A stretch of 64,000 bases of DNA from an uncultured Acidobacteriota bacterium (lineage in GTDB: Bacteria > Acidobacteriota > Thermoanaerobaculia > Gp7-AA8): contig CAWGHO010000003.1 of the NCBI GenBank assembly GCA_963822445.1, positions 704,001-768,000 of the forward strand. Direction: 5' to 3'. Numbering within the stretch: the first letter of the stretch is position 1; the number at the start of each line of letters is the position of its first letter. Made by a program: the position numbers and the translations under genes. The notes under the pieces were generated by a model. That model made no database searches. It had not been told where the DNA came from and worked only from the letters and a program-made list of their open reading frames with translations. This document shows, one piece after another, positions 56,665 through 63,606 of this stretch.

Positions 56665-57122
56665 AACGCACCCGATTGCTGCTGTTCACCCTCTGCTTCG
56701 TGCTGACCTGCCCGGTCCTGGCTGAAGAGCCCGCGTTCGATCCCGAGCTCGCGAAGAAGCTCGGCGCCGATGAGCGCGGCATGCGCATGTACGTCCTCTG
56801 CATCCTCAAGACGGGGCCGAAGGATGCCGAGATCAAGGGTGATGAACGGAAAGCGATCTTCGCCGGCCACTTCGCGAACATCGGCAAGCTCGCCGATGAA
56901 GGGAAGCTTGCCGTGGCCGGCCCGTTCGGCAAGAACGACAAGTCCTATCGCGGTCTCTACATCTTCAACGTGTCGACTCTCGAAGAAGCGGAGAAGCTGG
57001 TCACGCTCGATCCGGCGGTGAAGGCGGGAGTGTTCGTCCACGAGCTCACGCCCTGGTACGGCTCGGCCGCGATGATGGTCGTCAACGACACCCACAAGCG
57101 GATCGAGAAGCCGAAGGAGTAA
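56661..57122 (+). CDS. secreted YciI family protein
   Basis: Signal peptide; GHFANI, AGPF, DPAV.AG. Confidence 0.85.
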   Translation: MKRTRLLLFTLCFVLTCPVLAEEPAFDPELAKKLGADERGMRMYVLCILKTGPKDAEIKGDERKAIFAGHFANIGKLADEGKLAVAGPFGKNDKSYRGLYIFNVSTLEEAEKLVTLDPAVKAGVFVHELTPWYGSAAMMVVNDTHKRIEKPKE

Positions 57123-57140
57123 TGTCTCGACGCGTCAAAT

Positions 57141-57665
57141 TCACGCGTCGTAAACGATGTCGTATTCGAGACGCACCGTGCCCGACTTCTCGTAGACGCG
57201 CTGGTTGCGAAGGGCCAGCTTCGTGCGCGGTGCGGGAGAAGGCAGGAGAGGGATGCCGCCGCCGAGGAGCACGGGAACCACCGCGACCTCGATCTGATCG
57301 ACGAGCCGCGCCGCGAGCAGACTGCGAAACAGCTCCCCGCCTCCGAACAGGGCGATGTCCTTTCCGGGCTGACCGCGCAACTCCCGCACGACCCGCTCGG
57401 CATCGGCTTCGATCCTGAATTTCGGGAAGTCCGCTGGTCTCATCGTGCGCGAGAAGATGATGTTGCGAATGCCCGGTGCTTCCTCTGCCATGCCCATCTG
57501 CCGCATCGCGTCGAACGTCTTCCGCCCGATCAGGAACGTGTCGTACCGGCTCATCATCGCGGCGAAGTCGACGTCCGGATCCATCACGATCCAGTCGTAT
57601 TCGCCGTCCGGACCGGCGATGTACCCGTCGAGGCTGACCGCGCCACCAAAGCGGACGAGACGCAT
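57141..57665 (-). CDS. dihydrofolate reductase / RibD C-terminal family protein
   Basis: SLDGYIA, GRKTF, GGG, PVLLGGGIPL. Confidence 0.9.
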   Translation of the reverse strand: MRLVRFGGAVSLDGYIAGPDGEYDWIVMDPDVDFAAMMSRYDTFLIGRKTFDAMRQMGMAEEAPGIRNIIFSRTMRPADFPKFRIEADAERVVRELRGQPGKDIALFGGGELFRSLLAARLVDQIEVAVVPVLLGGGIPLLPSPAPRTKLALRNQRVYEKSGTVRLEYDIVYDA

Positions 57666-57680
57666 GGGTGGAAAGGATAA

Positions 57681-57706
57681 GGTAGGCCGGAGGCCCACAC
57701 TACACC
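57681..57706. repeat. REP family B copy
   Basis: Identical to 31331-31356 (reverse complement); supplies the TAG of the histidine kinase. Confidence 0.85.
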
Positions 57707-58779
57707 GGGAAGGCCACGCGAAAGATCGAGCCCCGCCCTTCGTCGCTCTGCACGTCGATCGCCGCGTGGTGCATGTGCGCGAGCTGTTTGACGATGGCCA
57801 GGCCCAGGCCGGTGCTTTTCTCGTCGCTCGTGCCCGCGGCTCCCAGCGTTCGGAACGGCTCGAAGATCTCGGCGAGCTTGTCCCTGGGGATGCCGATTCC
57901 CTGGTCCTCGATCTCGACGACCGCGCGCTCTGCTTCCTTGCGCACGCGGATGGTGACGTTGGTGTTGCTCCGCGAGAACTTGATGGCGTTGACCACCAGG
58001 TTGTTGATGATCTGCCGGAGCTTGACCGGATCGGCGCGGATGATGGCCCGGTCGGTGAGAGGCTCGAAGGTGATGGTGATCTGCTTGCGGTCCGCGCGCA
58101 GCCGGTTGATCACCGCGGCATGAGCGGCGGCGTTGACCAGGTCGACGTCCTGCAGATCGACGTCGACGTGTCCGCTCTCCAGCCTCGCCGAGTCGAGCAG
58201 CTCCTCGACCAGTTCGGCCATGAACCGGGAGGACGTGGAGATCTCGTCGATGAACAGCAGTTGTTCCTCGCGGCGAAGGTCGTCCGCTTTGAGCAGGTCG
58301 GCGTACGAGGAGATCACGGTGAGTGGATTGCGCAGGTCGTGTGCGGCGATCGCGAGCAGGCGGGATTTCTCCGCGGACAACCGCTCCAGGGAAGCGCTCT
58401 TGCGAGCGAGCTCGCGCTCGCGGTTGATGACCTCGTTGTTCAGCCGGGACAGCTCTTCGTACACGCCCGGATTCATTCCGGGCGATGCCGGTGCGGCCAG
58501 GATCAGCAGCCCTTCTCCCCGCAAGCCGGCGAAGGTCAGCGAGCGCACCGTCCCGCCGGCGGGCACGTCGAGCTCCCAGCCCGCGGCGAAGCCGGTTGCC
58601 TCGACCGCGGCGATGAAGTGCTCCGCTTTCCGCGCCGAGCCTTCATCGACGAGCGCGCTGAGGGTCACGCCGGCGCGCGCCACGCCGAAGTCGTCGCCGT
58701 GGACTTTGACGACCGTGCCGTCGGCGGCGCAGGACAGCGCTAACCACTGCGTGGCTCCCGAGTAGCGAGGGTCAGCCAT
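57700..58779 (-). CDS. cytoplasmic histidine kinase with short PAS-like N-terminus
   Basis: AHDLRNPL H-box, NLVVNAIKF, DQGIGI, GLGL; no TM segment. Confidence 0.92.
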   Translation of the reverse strand: MADPRYSGATQWLALSCAADGTVVKVHGDDFGVARAGVTLSALVDEGSARKAEHFIAAVEATGFAAGWELDVPAGGTVRSLTFAGLRGEGLLILAAPASPGMNPGVYEELSRLNNEVINRERELARKSASLERLSAEKSRLLAIAAHDLRNPLTVISSYADLLKADDLRREEQLLFIDEISTSSRFMAELVEELLDSARLESGHVDVDLQDVDLVNAAAHAAVINRLRADRKQITITFEPLTDRAIIRADPVKLRQIINNLVVNAIKFSRSNTNVTIRVRKEAERAVVEIEDQGIGIPRDKLAEIFEPFRTLGAAGTSDEKSTGLGLAIVKQLAHMHHAAIDVQSDEGRGSIFRVAFPV

Positions 58780-59818
58780 CGATCAAACTGTTTCCAAGCG
58801 CCACCGCCTCGGCGGCGTCTGTGGCCGCTCCGTCCGCTCCGAGAAAGCGCCACAGGTCGGGCCGTTCATGAAACACGTAGCCGCCGACGATCACTTTCAC
58901 GTTGGCGCAGCGCGAATCGGAACGGAGACGCGCCACGAGGTCGCGGGCCGTGCCGAGGTGGTAGGTCATGGTGATGCCGAGGGCCACGAGGTCGGGGCGT
59001 TCGCGGCAGACGAGGTCGACCAGCGCGGCGGCGGGCGTGTTCGCGCCGATGTACAGGCCGTCCCATCCTTCCATCTCGAAAAAATCGGCGACCATCCGCG
59101 TGCCGATCTCATGCAGCTCGCTGCCGACGCAGGCCACGACGACTTTTCGCCCGGTCCGCGGCGTCGCCAGGATCTGCGGGTAGAACTGGGCCATCAAAGC
59201 CTGCGTCGACGCGGTGCAGTAATGCTCCTCGGCCACGCTGATGACGTTGTTCTGCCAGAGCCGTCCGACCTCGCGTTGCGCGGGCTGGAAGACCTGCAGG
59301 TAGAGATCGCGGATGGCAACACCATCGCGCACCGCACTCTCGATGATCGCCACGGCTTCGCGCCGGTTTCCCTGGAGCAACGCGGTGAGGTACGTGTGTG
59401 CGAGGGGCGCCCGCGGTGAGGCGTCGAGATGCGAGTGCGCTTCCGACGGCTCGCTTTCGATGGCCGCGTCGATGTAACTCCGCACGGTTTGGGCTTCCGC
59501 ATCACCGAGCGAGCGGATCACTTCCTCGCGCAGGACCTCGAGGTTCGTCTTCAGGTCGGCCCAGGGGATTTTGCGCGATTCGAGCATCTGGCGCGCCCAC
59601 TGGGTGTAGGCGACGAAGAGCGAGGGCGTCTCGAAGCGAAGCGCGTGGCCGAGGTATTGGAGGTGAAACTCCGCGTCCTCGAGGCAGCGCACGCGTCCGA
59701 CCTCGCCCCAGCGCTCCGCGAATTCCGGATGCCGCCGCAGATGCTCGGCGGCGATGCGTGCCGCGAGCTCCCGGCGGCCCGATTCCAGATGAGCGGCCGC
59801 GGCTTCGAAGGGTCCCAT
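58772..59818 (-). CDS. globin (phycobiliprotein-like) + CarH-type cobalamin-binding protein (photocobilin-like)
   Basis: RCLEDAEFHLQYL in the helical N-domain; W-x9-EH (WQNNVISVAEEH); ELHEIG; IGANTP; VGG. Confidence 0.8.
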   Translation of the reverse strand: MGPFEAAAAHLESGRRELAARIAAEHLRRHPEFAERWGEVGRVRCLEDAEFHLQYLGHALRFETPSLFVAYTQWARQMLESRKIPWADLKTNLEVLREEVIRSLGDAEAQTVRSYIDAAIESEPSEAHSHLDASPRAPLAHTYLTALLQGNRREAVAIIESAVRDGVAIRDLYLQVFQPAQREVGRLWQNNVISVAEEHYCTASTQALMAQFYPQILATPRTGRKVVVACVGSELHEIGTRMVADFFEMEGWDGLYIGANTPAAALVDLVCRERPDLVALGITMTYHLGTARDLVARLRSDSRCANVKVIVGGYVFHERPDLWRFLGADGAATDAAEAVALGNSLIDG

Positions 59819-59826
59819 GTGTGCCT

Positions 59827-60138
59827 TCAATCCGTGATGTAGCGGAAGGTGAGCATCTCCGTCGCTTCCGGCACGAGCTTGAGCCCTGCCGGGATGCCCG
59901 CGTGCGACTCGCGATAGAGATGACTGCGGTGCCACTCCCGGAAGCTGTCTTCATCACGCCAGTAAGTGAGGAGCCAGAACTCCGCCTCGTCCGCGGTGGG
60001 GGAGACCACGTCCATGCGCACGAACCCGTCGGCGCCGTCGACAAGGTGCGGACGGGCCAGAAACGCGTCGCGGACATCCGCGGCGCGTCCGTTCTTGACT
60101 TTGAATTTGGAGAGGGCGAGGAAGGCCGGGGCAGGCAT
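59827..60138 (-). CDS. antibiotic-biosynthesis-monooxygenase fold, IsdG-like heme-degrading enzyme
   Basis: F..R...VD...GF and W.....F..W..S..Y...H pattern. Confidence 0.75.
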   Translation of the reverse strand: MPAPAFLALSKFKVKNGRAADVRDAFLARPHLVDGADGFVRMDVVSPTADEAEFWLLTYWRDEDSFREWHRSHLYRESHAGIPAGLKLVPEATEMLTFRYITD

Positions 60139-60212
60139 CGGGCGAAGATTGTACGGCGCCATTCTCGCGGCGGCCGCACTCCGTGCGGAATCCAGCCGTG
60201 CTCGGCCGCCGG

Positions 60213-61125
60213 CTATTTCCTGCTGGCCGCCTCCGCGCGCCGACGACGATCGTCGAAGATAGCGTGCAGGCGCCGTTCGTTGAAGCGCAGAAAGTCGTCG
60301 AGGCGCGTCTGCCAGTCCTTCAGCAAGACCTGCTTCCGTTGGCGTGATCCTCGGCGAAGTCGAGGAACATCTCGTCGTCGTGCAGGTAATTCTTGGCGAC
60401 CGTGACGTCGCTCTTGCGTACGACGTCGCCCTTCCAGGTGGTGAGACCCATGTTCGGCCGCGTCGCTTTGGCGCGCTCAGATCAATTCCGGGGCGGTCTT
60501 TCCCGTCACCGCGAAGTGCAGCTTGTTCTGGGCAATCTGGAAGAACTGCTGCGCCTCGGCGTCCTTCGGATCGTAGTCGGCGGCCAGCGCGAGGATCTCG
60601 CGCACGCGCAGGTACATCCGGCGCTCGCTGGCGCGGATATCGCGGATGCGCGCGAGCAGCTCATCGAAGTAGTCGGGCACACCGGGCCCGGGCGGGTTCT
60701 TCAGCCGCTCGTCGTCGAGGACGAAGCCTTTGACCAGGTACTCTTCCAGGCGTGCGGTAGCCCATTGTCGGAACTGCGTTCCGCGAGCCGACCGGACCCG
60801 ATAGCCGACAGCAAGGATCACCGGCAGGCTGTAGTGCTTGAGGTTGCGACGGATCTGGCGTTCCCCTTCGCGGCGAACTTGTAAGTAATCCTTACAAGTT
60901 GAGCTTTCCTCGAGCTCGCCCTCTTCGTAAATGGCGGCGAGGTGCATGGTGATGTTCTGGGGTGTCGTCTGGAACAACTCAGCAATGTCCGCCTGCGTCA
61001 GCCAGATCGTCCCTTTGGCGAAGCGGCACTCGACCGCGTCCGTCCGTCCTCCGTCCGGTACAGCACCAGATCGCCACCAGGGGGAATCGTCAGCTCGCCG
61101 TCGCTCACGCGGGGACCTCGTTGAC
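60213..61125 (-). pseudogene. RhuM family (virulence/DNA-binding) pseudogene
   Basis: WLTQ, VGYRVRS, FRQWA, KGFVLDDERLK, IRDIRASE, MGLTTW, AKNYL. Several frameshifts and apparent internal deletions in the 3' part. Confidence 0.8.
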
Positions 61126-61182
61126 CAAGTTCGGATGGTAACAAACGTGCCGGGCCGGCCTACCCACGGTAGAAAATTCAAA

Positions 61183-61207
61183 GGTAGGCCGGAGGCCCAC
61201 ACTACAC
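61183..61207. repeat. REP family B copy
   Basis: GGTAGGCCGGAGGCCCACACTACAC, with a partial inverted mate at ~61155-61164. Confidence 0.8.
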
Positions 61208-61242
61208 GGGCGCGTATCATCTGCCCACGGGAGCAAGTTCAA

Positions 61243-63606
61243 CTGGAGCGCTCGTCCGAAGCGGACCGCTACACCATCATCGCGCCCATCGGCAAAGGCG
61301 GGATGGGAGAGGTCTTCCGTGCCCGCGATAACCGCCTCGAGCGCGACGTTGCGTTGAAGATCCTTCCCGCGGCGTATGCGAGCAATCCCGATCGCCTTCG
61401 CCGGCTGGAACAGGAAGCGCGCGCCGCCGGTCAGATCAACCATCCGAACGTCGTCGCGGTCTACGACGTCGCGACGGTCAACGGCGCGACCTGCATCGTT
61501 TCAGAATTGCTGGAAGGGGAGACTCTTGGTCAGCGCCTCGCGCGAGGCAGGATTCCGGACTCACAAGCGATTCGCTACGCCGTTCAGATTGCCGAGGGGC
61601 TGGCCGCGGCGCATCGGCGCGGGGTGGTTCATCGCGATCTCAAGCCGGACAACATCTTCCTCACCACCGATGGCGATCGCGCCAAGATTCTCGACTTCGG
61701 CCTGGCCCAGTCGTTCGAGCCGGTGCTGGACGGACCGACCGTGCCTCATCCGACTCAGCCGGGCATGGTGGTGGGGACGGTTGGCTACATGGCTCCGGAG
61801 CAGGTCCGCGGAGGAGCGGCGGATCAGCGTTCCGACATCTTCTCGTTCGGCGTCGTGCTCTTCGAGATGCTCAGCGGCCGGCGCGCGTTCCACCGCGGCA
61901 GCGCCGCCGACACGATGGTCGCCATTCTCAACGAGGAGCCGCCGGAGCTTTCCAGCGAACAACCGGGACTTCTGCCGATTCTCCGCCGCTGCCTGGCCAA
62001 GAATCCCGATGGGCGATATCAGTCGGCGCGCGATCTCGCGTTTCATCTCGAACAACTCGCATCGCTTTCGGGCTCGGCGTCGGTGCACAGTCACGCGGGT
62101 TCGCCGAAGTGGTCGTACGCCGTAGCGGCCATCCTCGCCGCGCTCCTCCTCGCGGCCTTCGTCTGGTACCTGGTCAACCAGCGCCGCGCGAGCATGCCCG
62201 CCCGCAGAACGAATTCGATTGCCGTCGTGCCGTTCGTCAACATGAGCCGCGCGCCCGATGCCGAATACTTCAGCGACGGGATGACCGAGGAATTGATCAC
62301 GGCGTTGTCGCGCGTCGAGGGGTTGCGCGTCGCGGCACGAACGTCCTCCTTCGCGTTCAAGGGAAAGCAGGGCGATGCGCGCGACATCGCAGGCAAGCTC
62401 GGCGTCGATCATCTTCTGGAAGGAAGCGTTCGCCAGACCGGCAATCGGTTGCGCGTCACGGCTCAATTGATCGACGGAAAGAACGGCTATCACGTCTGGT
62501 CGGAGACGTATGACCGGGAGATGCTGGACGTCTTTCGGATCCAGGAGGAAATCTCCCGCGAGATCGTCACCAGGCTCACGTCCGCGGCAGCGGCGCCGGC
62601 GAAAATCGAGCGCGCTTCGGCCGCAGAGTTCGCGGCGTACGACCTCTATCTGAAAGGAAACTTCCGGTTCAATCAGGCCCTCAACACGGGATCAGAAACA
62701 CAGTTGCAGCAAGCCGTCGGCCTTTACGAGCAGGCCATCGCCCGCAATCCGCGCTCTGCCGCTGCGTACTCCGGTCTGGCCAAGGCCTACACGCACTTCG
62801 AGCTCATGGGCGTACATGTCGAGGAACATCACCAGAAGGCGGAAGTAGCGGCGCGGCGCGCACTGCAGCTCGATCCGAACCTCGCCGAAGCGCACATCGC
62901 GCTCGGGGACGTTTTCTTTCATCACGGGAACAATGTCGCCGAAGCGGAACGTGAGTTTCGGCGGGCCATCGAGCTCGACCCCAACTCTGCCGAAGCGCAC
63001 TCCTACTACGGCTACCTGCTGCTACGCGAGTGTCGCGTCGACGAGGCCGGCGTGCAGGGCCGGCTCGCGGTGCAATCGTCGCCGCTCGACCTTGTCGCGA
63101 ATGTCTTTCTCGGTCACGCGCTGGTGTACGCGCGACAGTACGACGAAGCGATTCGCCATCTCGAGAACGCATTGCAGATCGACCCTCAGTCGGCCGGAAC
63201 CCTTCACATGCTCTCCGTCGCTCAGTCGATGCGCGGCGATCATGACAGGGCCATCGATGGATACAAGCGCGTGGCAGCGATGATCCCGAAGGATCCGCAA
63301 GTTCGGATCATGCAGGCCTGGCTCAACGCGCGCGCCGGGCGCGGTCAAGAGGCGTGGAAAATCGTCAATGAGGTGCTGGCCTTGCCTCCCGAGGAGCGCG
63401 TCAAAAGGAGTCACGTCCTCGGCGGGACGCACATCGTCCTGGGCGAGCACGAACGGGCTCTGGAGTGGCTGAAGAAGGGCGTCGAGACGGGGTACGTGAG
63501 CTGGTTCGATCTCAAAGCATCGCCGTGGTTCGACGCATTGCGATCGGATCCGCGCTTCACCGCACTGATCGAGCAGGCAGCGACGAAGGAAAAACGCAAG
63601 GCCTGA
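61243..63606 (+). CDS. Ser/Thr kinase with TM, TolB-N-like and TPR domains (start uncertain)
   Basis: GKGGMG, HRDLKPDN, DFG, APE; SIAVVPF, DGMTEE, LEGSVR; TPRs; SDPRF end. Confidence 0.93.
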   Translation: MERSSEADRYTIIAPIGKGGMGEVFRARDNRLERDVALKILPAAYASNPDRLRRLEQEARAAGQINHPNVVAVYDVATVNGATCIVSELLEGETLGQRLARGRIPDSQAIRYAVQIAEGLAAAHRRGVVHRDLKPDNIFLTTDGDRAKILDFGLAQSFEPVLDGPTVPHPTQPGMVVGTVGYMAPEQVRGGAADQRSDIFSFGVVLFEMLSGRRAFHRGSAADTMVAILNEEPPELSSEQPGLLPILRRCLAKNPDGRYQSARDLAFHLEQLASLSGSASVHSHAGSPKWSYAVAAILAALLLAAFVWYLVNQRRASMPARRTNSIAVVPFVNMSRAPDAEYFSDGMTEELITALSRVEGLRVAARTSSFAFKGKQGDARDIAGKLGVDHLLEGSVRQTGNRLRVTAQLIDGKNGYHVWSETYDREMLDVFRIQEEISREIVTRLTSAAAAPAKIERASAAEFAAYDLYLKGNFRFNQALNTGSETQLQQAVGLYEQAIARNPRSAAAYSGLAKAYTHFELMGVHVEEHHQKAEVAARRALQLDPNLAEAHIALGDVFFHHGNNVAEAEREFRRAIELDPNSAEAHSYYGYLLLRECRVDEAGVQGRLAVQSSPLDLVANVFLGHALVYARQYDEAIRHLENALQIDPQSAGTLHMLSVAQSMRGDHDRAIDGYKRVAAMIPKDPQVRIMQAWLNARAGRGQEAWKIVNEVLALPPEERVKRSHVLGGTHIVLGEHERALEWLKKGVETGYVSWFDLKASPWFDALRSDPRFTALIEQAATKEKRKA

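Follow-up and report, generated by a model that had tools for sequence, protein, structure and literature searches.

An IsdG-like protein, a photoglobin-B12 sensor and a PAS-type histidine kinase encoded together in an uncultured Acidobacteriota bacterium: a candidate light-sensing operon

The window analysed here is a 64,000-nucleotide (nt) stretch of DNA from an uncultured Acidobacteriota bacterium of the Thermoanaerobaculia (assembly GCA_963822445.1, contig CAWGHO010000003.1, positions 704,001 to 768,000 of the forward strand), and the system in question is a run of three genes that a first-pass annotation had proposed as a candidate light-sensing operon. All features of the operon given below lie on the minus strand. 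The first gene (59827..60138) codes for an ABM-domain protein resembling IsdG, which comprises 103 amino acids (aa) when counted from the second Met, the longest open reading frame (ORF) beginning at 60162. It is followed by the gene of a 348-aa protein that combines a globin with B12-binding domains (58772..59818), hereafter the sensor, and by the gene of a 359-aa histidine kinase (57700..58779). The gap between the ABM and sensor genes measures 8 nt (59819-59826), the sensor and kinase genes overlap by 8 nt (58772-58779), and the three genes together span 2.4 kb. The tight linkage first noted was thus confirmed, with its coordinates exact. No hydrophobic or membrane-like segment was found in any of the three proteins, the maximum 19-residue Kyte-Doolittle mean being 1.12, in agreement with the earlier description of the kinase as soluble.

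Pfam searches divided the sensor into three domains. The Phycobilisome model (PF00502) matched residues 7-121 with 27.4 bits against a cut-off of 22.2, marking a globin or photoglobin domain (residues 1-124, 59447..59818), and C-terminal to it lie a B12-binding_2 four-helix cap (PF02607, E 1.9e-16; residues 140-211, 59186..59401) and a Rossmann B12-binding domain (PF02310, E 5e-22; residues 225-339, 58802..59146). No Pfam match to a DNA-binding or helix-turn-helix domain was obtained for the sensor, whose N-terminus is occupied by the globin. A sequence search of the PDB returned the photocobilins 8j2y, 8j2w and 8j2x as top matches (E ~1e-23). The sensor was modelled with AlphaFold2 (AF2) from 65 homologs, reaching a predicted local distance difference test score (pLDDT) of 93.8. 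When the whole model was submitted to Foldseek, only B12 domains were recovered (CtMerR 8JBS, photocobilin and CarH), because the reversed domain order blocks a joint alignment that would include the globin. The fold of the N-terminal domain was assigned by VIA-align, an exhaustive wide structure search. The results showed that residues 1-124 resemble allophycocyanin 8or7 (Z 16.0, root-mean-square deviation 2.2, 123 residues), phycoerythrin 1b8d (Z 15.2), the bilin domain of ApcE 4xxi (Z 14.7) and the RsbR globin (Z 12.5), and that residues 134-348 match the photocobilins with Z 26.4 (8j2w) and 26.0 at 29-33% identity. Both structural expectations of the first-pass annotation, a phycobiliprotein-like globin in front and a B12 module of the CarH or photocobilin type behind it, were borne out.

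Judged by its sequence, the sensor belongs to the published photoglobin-B12 family, and its closest solved relatives are the photocobilins. Schneider 2022 (PMC8717448) described photoglobins fused before or after B12 domains, in operons with histidine kinases and receivers. The sensor shares with that family a phycocyanin-related non-heme globin joined to the domains B12-binding_2 and B12-binding, the setting in a kinase operon and a pocket of C45, D48 and L79. Some automatic annotations state that the protein is a corrinoid methyl-carrier of the MtbC/MtaC kind; the name 'methanogenic corrinoid protein MtbC1' occurs in databases, and NCBIfam corrinoid-protein models match with E 1e-15 to 1e-8. 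However, the scores stay far below cut-off (56.7 vs 370 bits), no methyltransferase gene neighbours the sensor gene in the window or at related loci, and the protein combines a fused globin with a W-x9-EH signature, its nearest structures being photoreceptors. The methyl-carrier identity was therefore rejected, its probability being close to negligible.

The first-pass annotation had reported the CarH-type adenosylcobalamin (AdoCbl) signature in a protein lacking a DNA-binding domain, and this holds: the sensor carries W188-x9-E198-H199, within the four-helix cap, and E234-x-H236-x-x-G239. Conservation was assessed in a 65-sequence homolog alignment of the sensor (A1) and in related loci from a scan of one genome per species, where all counts refer to the best 80 of 294 stretches. 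W188, E198 and H199, as well as H236, G239, G258 and P262, are invariant in the alignment, and W188, E198-H199 and H236 are found in 80/80 related loci. The aligned counterparts of W188, E198-H199 and H236 in SasPcob are W61, E71-H72 and the ligand His, and His236, placed in E-x-H-x-x-G, is predicted to be the lower axial ligand of cobalamin. The signature of light-responsive cobalamin domains has been given as GxxW, EH, GxxH and GxxxP in a paper that also mentions further 'BBD-CBD fusion proteins' (PMC11796333), and three of these motifs fit the sensor exactly, namely G185-R-L-W188, E198-H199 and, in the Rossmann domain, G258-A-N-T-P262. A four-helix cap followed by a Rossmann cobalamin domain, W-x9-EH and a His-on ligand are likewise features of CarH and CtMerR (5C8D, 8JBS), from which the sensor differs in having a globin in place of the MerR DNA-binding domain and a GxxH motif shifted by one residue.

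AerR (7te2, Z 21.4) and the SCHIC domain of AppA (4heh, Z 19.9) were further structural matches to the B12 fold, in keeping with a chemical sensor that works in the dark and reports the availability of cobalamin, heme or bilin, or the redox or oxygen state, light having no physiological role. Pointing in that direction are also the kinase's own PAS domain, described below, and the sources of related sequences: the nearest named relatives of the sensor come from Thermoanaerobaculia-labelled metagenome-assembled genomes (MAGs), and the related loci include Syntrophaceae, Desulfobacteraceae and Promethearchaeota. Such a dark sensor is nevertheless rather improbable, for the adenosyl pocket W-x9-EH is invariant and published work connects its signature with cobalamin domains that respond to light (PMC11796333), photoreceptors are the nearest relatives of known structure, and the globin retains the residues that contact biliverdin and corrin. 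We thus prefer a light-sensing function for the sensor.

These contact residues lie in the pocket of the globin. The segment RCLEDAEFHLQYL begins at residue 44, and the pocket motif there reads C45-L-E-D48 (59675..59686). It had first been compared with the C-x-R-D motif of phycobiliproteins; Cys45 does occupy the phycobiliprotein bilin-attachment position, but the motif is C-x-E-D. The attachment motif of phycobiliproteins is CXRD and that of photoglobins CXQD (Rockwell 2023, PMC10151467), and with C-L-E-D instead of CXRD the membership of the globin among the phycobiliproteins was rejected. In the alignment to 8j2w and 8j2y, Asp48 falls on SasPcob Asp270 and Trp74 on Trp296 (chain index + 6 gives the numbering of the paper), of which Asp270 is a key biliverdin contact and Trp296 bridges bilin and corrin (PMC10979010). 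D48 and W74 are invariant across the 65 homologs, and L79 is at least 90% conserved. The residues C45, D48 and L79 correspond to C46, D49 and L80 of the photoglobins, whose pocket has been described as a distal Cys, Ser or Thr, a conserved Asp on helix 3 and a hydrophobic Leu on helix 4 (PMC8717448).

Zhang 2024 showed that B12-first photocobilins bind AdoCbl together with biliverdin and are activated by light (PMC10979010; PDB 8J2W, 8J2X, 8J2Y). The sensor resembles the photocobilins SasPcob and AbPcob/AbDPcob in its CarH-type AdoCbl domain, its bilin-type globin with equivalents of Asp270 and Trp296, and the lack of a DNA-binding domain. It differs from them in domain order, the globin being N-terminal here whereas in 8j2w/8j2y the B12 part covers residues ~7-214 and the globin residues ~220-340. 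Further differences are Cys45, where the photocobilins have no Cys; the output, which is a separate kinase here, the photocobilins being either fused to a diguanylate cyclase or stand-alone; and the globin parts themselves, whose sequences have little in common (14.2 and 5.9 bits).

The product of the upstream gene is a ferredoxin-like ABM domain of ~100 aa (PF03992, E 1.3e-14), and its PDB matches are IsdI, IsdG, MhuD and HmoB (E 2.5e-7 to 3.2e-5). Its relatives bear automatic database names such as 'heme-degrading monooxygenase HmoA' or 'heme oxygenase (mycobilin-producing)'. The catalytic triad of IsdG consists of Asn7, Trp67 and His77 (reviewed in PMC6018153). Alignment with IsdI, IsdG and MhuD placed Ser10 at the catalytic Asn and showed that the Trp (Trp60) and His (His79) are kept, exactly the pattern that the first-pass annotation had described; the Ser10 codon, at the position of IsdG Asn7 by alignment to IsdI 2zdp and TT1380 1iuj, lies at 60109..60111. 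Among 47 operon-linked ABM homologs, 46 have the Ser, 46 the Trp and all 47 the His, so the exchange of Asn for Ser is a feature of the clade and not a local accident. Additional residues conserved in the clade are W69 (46/47), H70 (45/47) and H73 (44/47). The clade therefore shares with the IsdG family (IsdG/IsdI, MhuD, HmoB, HmuQ) the ABM ferredoxin-like fold, the size of ~100 aa and an aligned His ligand and Trp, and departs from it by the clade-wide Ser and by linkage of the gene to a photoreceptor, not to iron or heme uptake genes.

The best 80 related loci are spread over the Acidobacteriota, Bacteroidota/Balneolales, Chloroflexota, Gemmatimonadota, Planctomycetota, Verrucomicrobiota and Desulfobacterota, and include a Heliorestis isolate and a Promethearchaeota MAG. 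In 46/80 loci the gene directly upstream of the sensor gene, on the same strand, codes for an ABM homolog, and one more locus (L077) has it in divergent orientation. Directly downstream of the sensor, a histidine kinase gene is found in 68/80 loci, 50 of these kinases being orthologous at E < 1e-50, and the kinase-sensor junction often has overlapping stop and start codons, as in the window. The full trio is present in 40/80 loci across many phyla, or in 38 of 72 once loci whose flanking DNA is too short on either side are set aside, so that the genes do co-occur elsewhere, as the first-pass annotation had expected of a functional module. Then, a sample of 401 genomes from the phylum of the window was searched for Ser-type ABM proteins at a threshold of E <= 1e-30. 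Five genomes, the window's included, carry one (5/401), and in 5/5 the sensor gene follows, whereas 15 weaker ABM matches (one of them, L089, from genome G049) have the canonical Asn and none of them (0/15) has a sensor gene nearby. Because the linkage recurs across many phyla and separates Ser-type from Asn-type proteins in this way, it goes beyond chance. In this sample, the Ser-type ABM protein appears to be dedicated to the sensor.

Some single loci deserve mention. Both L051, from a Promethearchaeota (Asgard archaeon) MAG, and L039, from the heliobacterium Heliorestis acidaminivorans, have the sensor with a downstream kinase and lack the ABM gene; the sensor family therefore crosses domains of life. 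At L005 (3047-3400), a gene for a KaiB-domain protein stands directly after the partner kinase, making a link between the light sensor and clock-like proteins possible. At L074 (5034-6776), a PAS-GGDEF diguanylate cyclase, as a separate protein, replaces the kinase after the sensor, which echoes the fused cyclase of AbDPcob.

Bacteriophytochrome operons place the heme oxygenase gene bphO beside the gene of a bilin photoreceptor kinase. The present operon is alike in that a putative heme-opening enzyme would stand beside the bilin photoreceptor that it feeds, with a histidine kinase as output, and it is unlike them in having a globin and B12 sensor instead of PAS-GAF-PHY, a separate kinase, and an IsdG-type enzyme instead of a canonical heme oxygenase. 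Heme oxygenases were searched for as PF01126 only, the HugZ/HutZ, ChuS and ChuW families lying outside the search. In the window genome, which is 94.7% complete, there was no match to PF01126 and none to the phytochrome PHY domain; it carries one copy each of the Ser-type ABM gene and the sensor gene, along with a PduO-type cobalamin adenosyltransferase. Across the genomes of all 80 loci, PF01126 was found in six, always with ABM-less loci. When the 34 genomes whose sensor gene has no ABM neighbour on its own strand were searched for Ser-type ABM genes, three were positive (L077 with its divergent copy, and L106 and L108 with unlinked ones), and the final comparison was 0/49 genomes with a Ser-type ABM protein vs 6/31 without (Fisher p 0.0025, uncorrected for kinship). 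Furthermore, PF01126 genes adjoin the sensor in four ABM-less loci, upstream on the same strand in L079 and divergently in L064, L066 and L078. Since the ABM gene is directly upstream of the sensor (46/80 and 5/5) and was never found together with a canonical heme oxygenase, the ABM protein is the likely source of bilin. The distribution fits an ABM protein standing in for heme oxygenase, the evidence for which is comparative throughout.

The third gene codes for a kinase whose catalytic core is of the usual kind, with HisKA (E 3.5e-15) and HATPase_c (E 5.7e-29) domains and with PDB matches of the HK853 type (1e-29). The H-box residue H147 and the residues of the N, G1, F and G2 boxes, among them N264, D292/G294/G296 and G324/G326, do not vary among 29 orthologs. 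The first-pass annotation had called this kinase sensor-less. This was not upheld: no Pfam PAS model matched the kinase, but the AF2 model of residues 1-125 (pLDDT >90 over residues 11-90) shows two strands, helices and three strands, and Foldseek placed PAS domains at the top (probability 1.00, TM-score 0.56-0.62 on the query), with PAS-B of ARNT (2b02, TM-score 0.66 on the target) and FixL among the matches. The PAS fold covers residues ~9-100 (58480..58755). The orthologous kinases beside the sensor at other loci share these ~100 N-terminal residues, K51 and W68 without exception. Between PAS and HisKA (His147), the kinase of the window lacks ~35 residues of coiled-coil linker, or five heptads, compared with orthologs of ~400 aa (residues ~100-125, 58405-58480), and the shortened coiled coil may alter the transmission or register of the signal.

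The PAS domain, previously unrecognised, is likely the docking site for the sensor. A complex prediction with the sensor (alignment A1) and the kinase PAS domain (alignment A3) scored 0.01, which says nothing for or against binding. The PAS domain could itself bind a ligand, in which case the kinase would sense a signal of its own and be merely co-transcribed, the sensor acting on another target; the 12/80 loci without an adjoining kinase, where the GGDEF protein of L074 or other genes are found instead, agree with such independence. This is nonetheless quite improbable, considering that a kinase is directly downstream of the sensor in 68/80 loci from many phyla, often with overlapping codons, and that 50 of these kinases share the same unusual N-terminal domain. 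Control of the kinase by the sensor, in trans, is the reading we retain.

Taken together, we consider it somewhat probable that the three genes form an operon for a cytoplasmic B12/bilin light sensor that belongs to the photoglobin-B12 (photocobilin-type) family, has its bilin supplied from within the operon and controls a kinase in trans. In this model, the IsdG-type ABM protein would open heme and supply a linear tetrapyrrole. The bilin would be held in the N-terminal globin beside the corrin, presumably through contacts with Asp48 and Trp74, residues that are present in the sequence, and Cys45 might add a thioether link. The CarH-type module would hold AdoCbl, with His236 under the cobalt and W188 and E198-H199 around the adenosyl group. 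By analogy with photocobilins, green light, or red light by way of the bilin, would cleave the Co-C bond and change the conformation or oligomeric state of the sensor. This change would pass in trans to the kinase, most likely via the PAS domain, and set the autophosphorylation of His147, from which the phosphoryl group would go to a receiver encoded elsewhere in the genome. In favour of the kinase part of the model, 19 of 28 genes that come after the kinase at other loci begin with a receiver domain.

Several observations speak against this proposal. The lack of the Asn is a genuine objection to IsdG chemistry of the usual kind: Asn7 of IsdG is critical for activity, and an Asn7-to-Ala exchange lowered the activity of MhuD (PMC6018153). 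The NCBIfam HmuQ and IsdI models match the ABM protein far below cut-off, the best score being 41.3 vs 130 bits for HmuQ. Two Ser-type ABM genes (L106 and L108) lie away from any sensor gene. Neither a Ser-type ABM protein nor PF01126 was found in 25/80 genomes, many of which are incomplete MAGs, so that an operon-encoded bilin source is not obligatory. Cys45 is not universal (36/46 ABM-linked loci vs 10/34 others), and in the photocobilins of solved structure biliverdin is bound with no Cys involved (PMC10979010). The GxxH signature is one residue longer, G232-S-E-L-H236, throughout the sensor family. Finally, no receiver gene adjoins the kinase in the window or in two same-family genomes that have the trio.

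Part of this evidence would suit an ABM protein that is no chromophore-supplying heme oxygenase at all and serves as an accessory that binds heme or bilin, be it as chaperone, lyase-like loader, bilin-modifying oxygenase or heme sensor, the bilin coming from elsewhere or the globin holding another ligand. The replacement of the critical Asn (PMC6018153) in 46/47 clade members, the low scores of the NCBIfam heme-oxygenase equivalogs, the clade's own conserved W69-H70 and H73 and the 25 sensor-bearing genomes with neither enzyme all favour it. Yet the heme-ligand His (47/47) and the ruffling Trp (46/47) are kept, PF01126 takes a place beside the sensor in the four ABM-less loci and never together with ABM, and the window genome gave no match to PF01126; an accessory role is accordingly unlikely in our estimate. 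A more specific version of the light-sensing proposal is that the Ser-type ABM protein is a dedicated chromophore synthase whose bilin differs from biliverdin IX-alpha and might be a mycobilin- or staphylobilin-type formyl-oxobilin formed with no CO set free. That bilin would be thioether-linked to Cys45 and coupled optically to AdoCbl, and the PAS kinase would read out the signal in trans. We regard this version as speculative and of low probability. If it is true, non-phototrophic bacteria would possess a way to sensory bilins that bypasses heme oxygenase, together with a new photoreceptor chromophore.

Pocket residues of the sensor were also compared with the presence of the ABM gene. Leu79 is found in 44/46 ABM-linked loci vs 9/34 others, and Arg at the third motif position (Arg47) in 0/46 vs 16/34. 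A tree-based analysis of Leu79, non-Arg47 and Cys45 yielded four supported independent pairs (sign test p ~1). With only four such pairs, the association between ABM and the pocket is inseparable from shared ancestry, a further point against the proposed module, and the raw contingency was not used as evidence of co-adaptation.

Only two ABM homologs have lost a key residue, L016 (record title Gracilimonas sp. Q87; Trp60 to Arg) and L043 (Fodinibius sp. SL11; Ser10 to Arg). In the sensors beside both, Cys45 is replaced by Tyr (Y-Y-E-D), and Tyr also occurs in L048, where the ABM protein is intact. L016 and L043 may represent a joint decay of enzyme and attachment site.

The first-pass annotation held that the arrangement was not known to have been characterised. 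This overstated its novelty: fusions of photoglobin with B12 domains, kinase operons and ABM neighbours are all in PMC8717448, where the neighbours listed include 'ABM monooxygenase, hemeoxygenase' and the ABM proteins are read as possibly 'sensing and degrading' chemicals. A family with kinase and ABM neighbours is thus already published, and the locus is a further member of it. Schneider 2022 is a computational description and itself states that none of its loci had been studied experimentally (PMC8717448); the accessible part of that report singles out no Ser-for-Asn clade, no exclusive link to the sensor and no exclusion of heme oxygenase. No experimental test of the globin-first form, the partner kinase or a Ser-type ABM protein was found in the accessible literature, the supplements of PMC10979010 and PMC10151467 excluded. 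Overall, the parts of the original light-module interpretation were largely right, with the exception of the sensor-less kinase and the claim of novelty. Two new leads emerge, one being the IsdG-like clade with its Ser and its tie to the sensor, the other the PAS domain hidden in the partner kinase. Photocobilins, which are new (2024), are in demand as parts for optogenetics, and studies have covered only their B12-first form, which lacks the Cys. For the bilin supply and the signal relay of photocobilin-type sensors in cells, the locus offers a compact natural test set, and should the IsdG-type protein yield something other than biliverdin, the chromophore would itself be a new one.

The surroundings of the operon were inspected as well. 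Directly past the kinase stop codon lies a terminator-like stem-loop (57682..57698), a weak hint only, as the pattern scan gave three sites vs 2.0 +/- 1.5 expected by chance. A scan of 56900-60600 returned no sigma-70-like promoter site, a result that is uninformative for this organism. A search of sequencing runs for the locus listed no RNA run and two DNA runs, at a 0.05 share of words. On the same strand as the kinase gene, and beginning ~35 nt or less from its stop codon, is a gene for a RibD_C/DHFR-like reductase (57141-57698); it probably stands outside the module, because two same-family genomes showed no recognisable RibD_C-like gene behind the kinase. Upstream of the operon, a RhuM-family gene (60216-61220, minus strand) is broken and looks like a frameshifted pseudogene: its ORF at 60477-61220 spans positions 1-139 of the 252 of the Pfam model, and positions 150-195 are in another frame at 60323-60451. 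Further on, the plus strand encodes a large Ser/Thr protein kinase (60931-63606) that, judged from its translation only, has a transmembrane segment and C-terminal TPR-like repeats, and after it comes a gene fragment on the opposite strand with FHA-like sequence.

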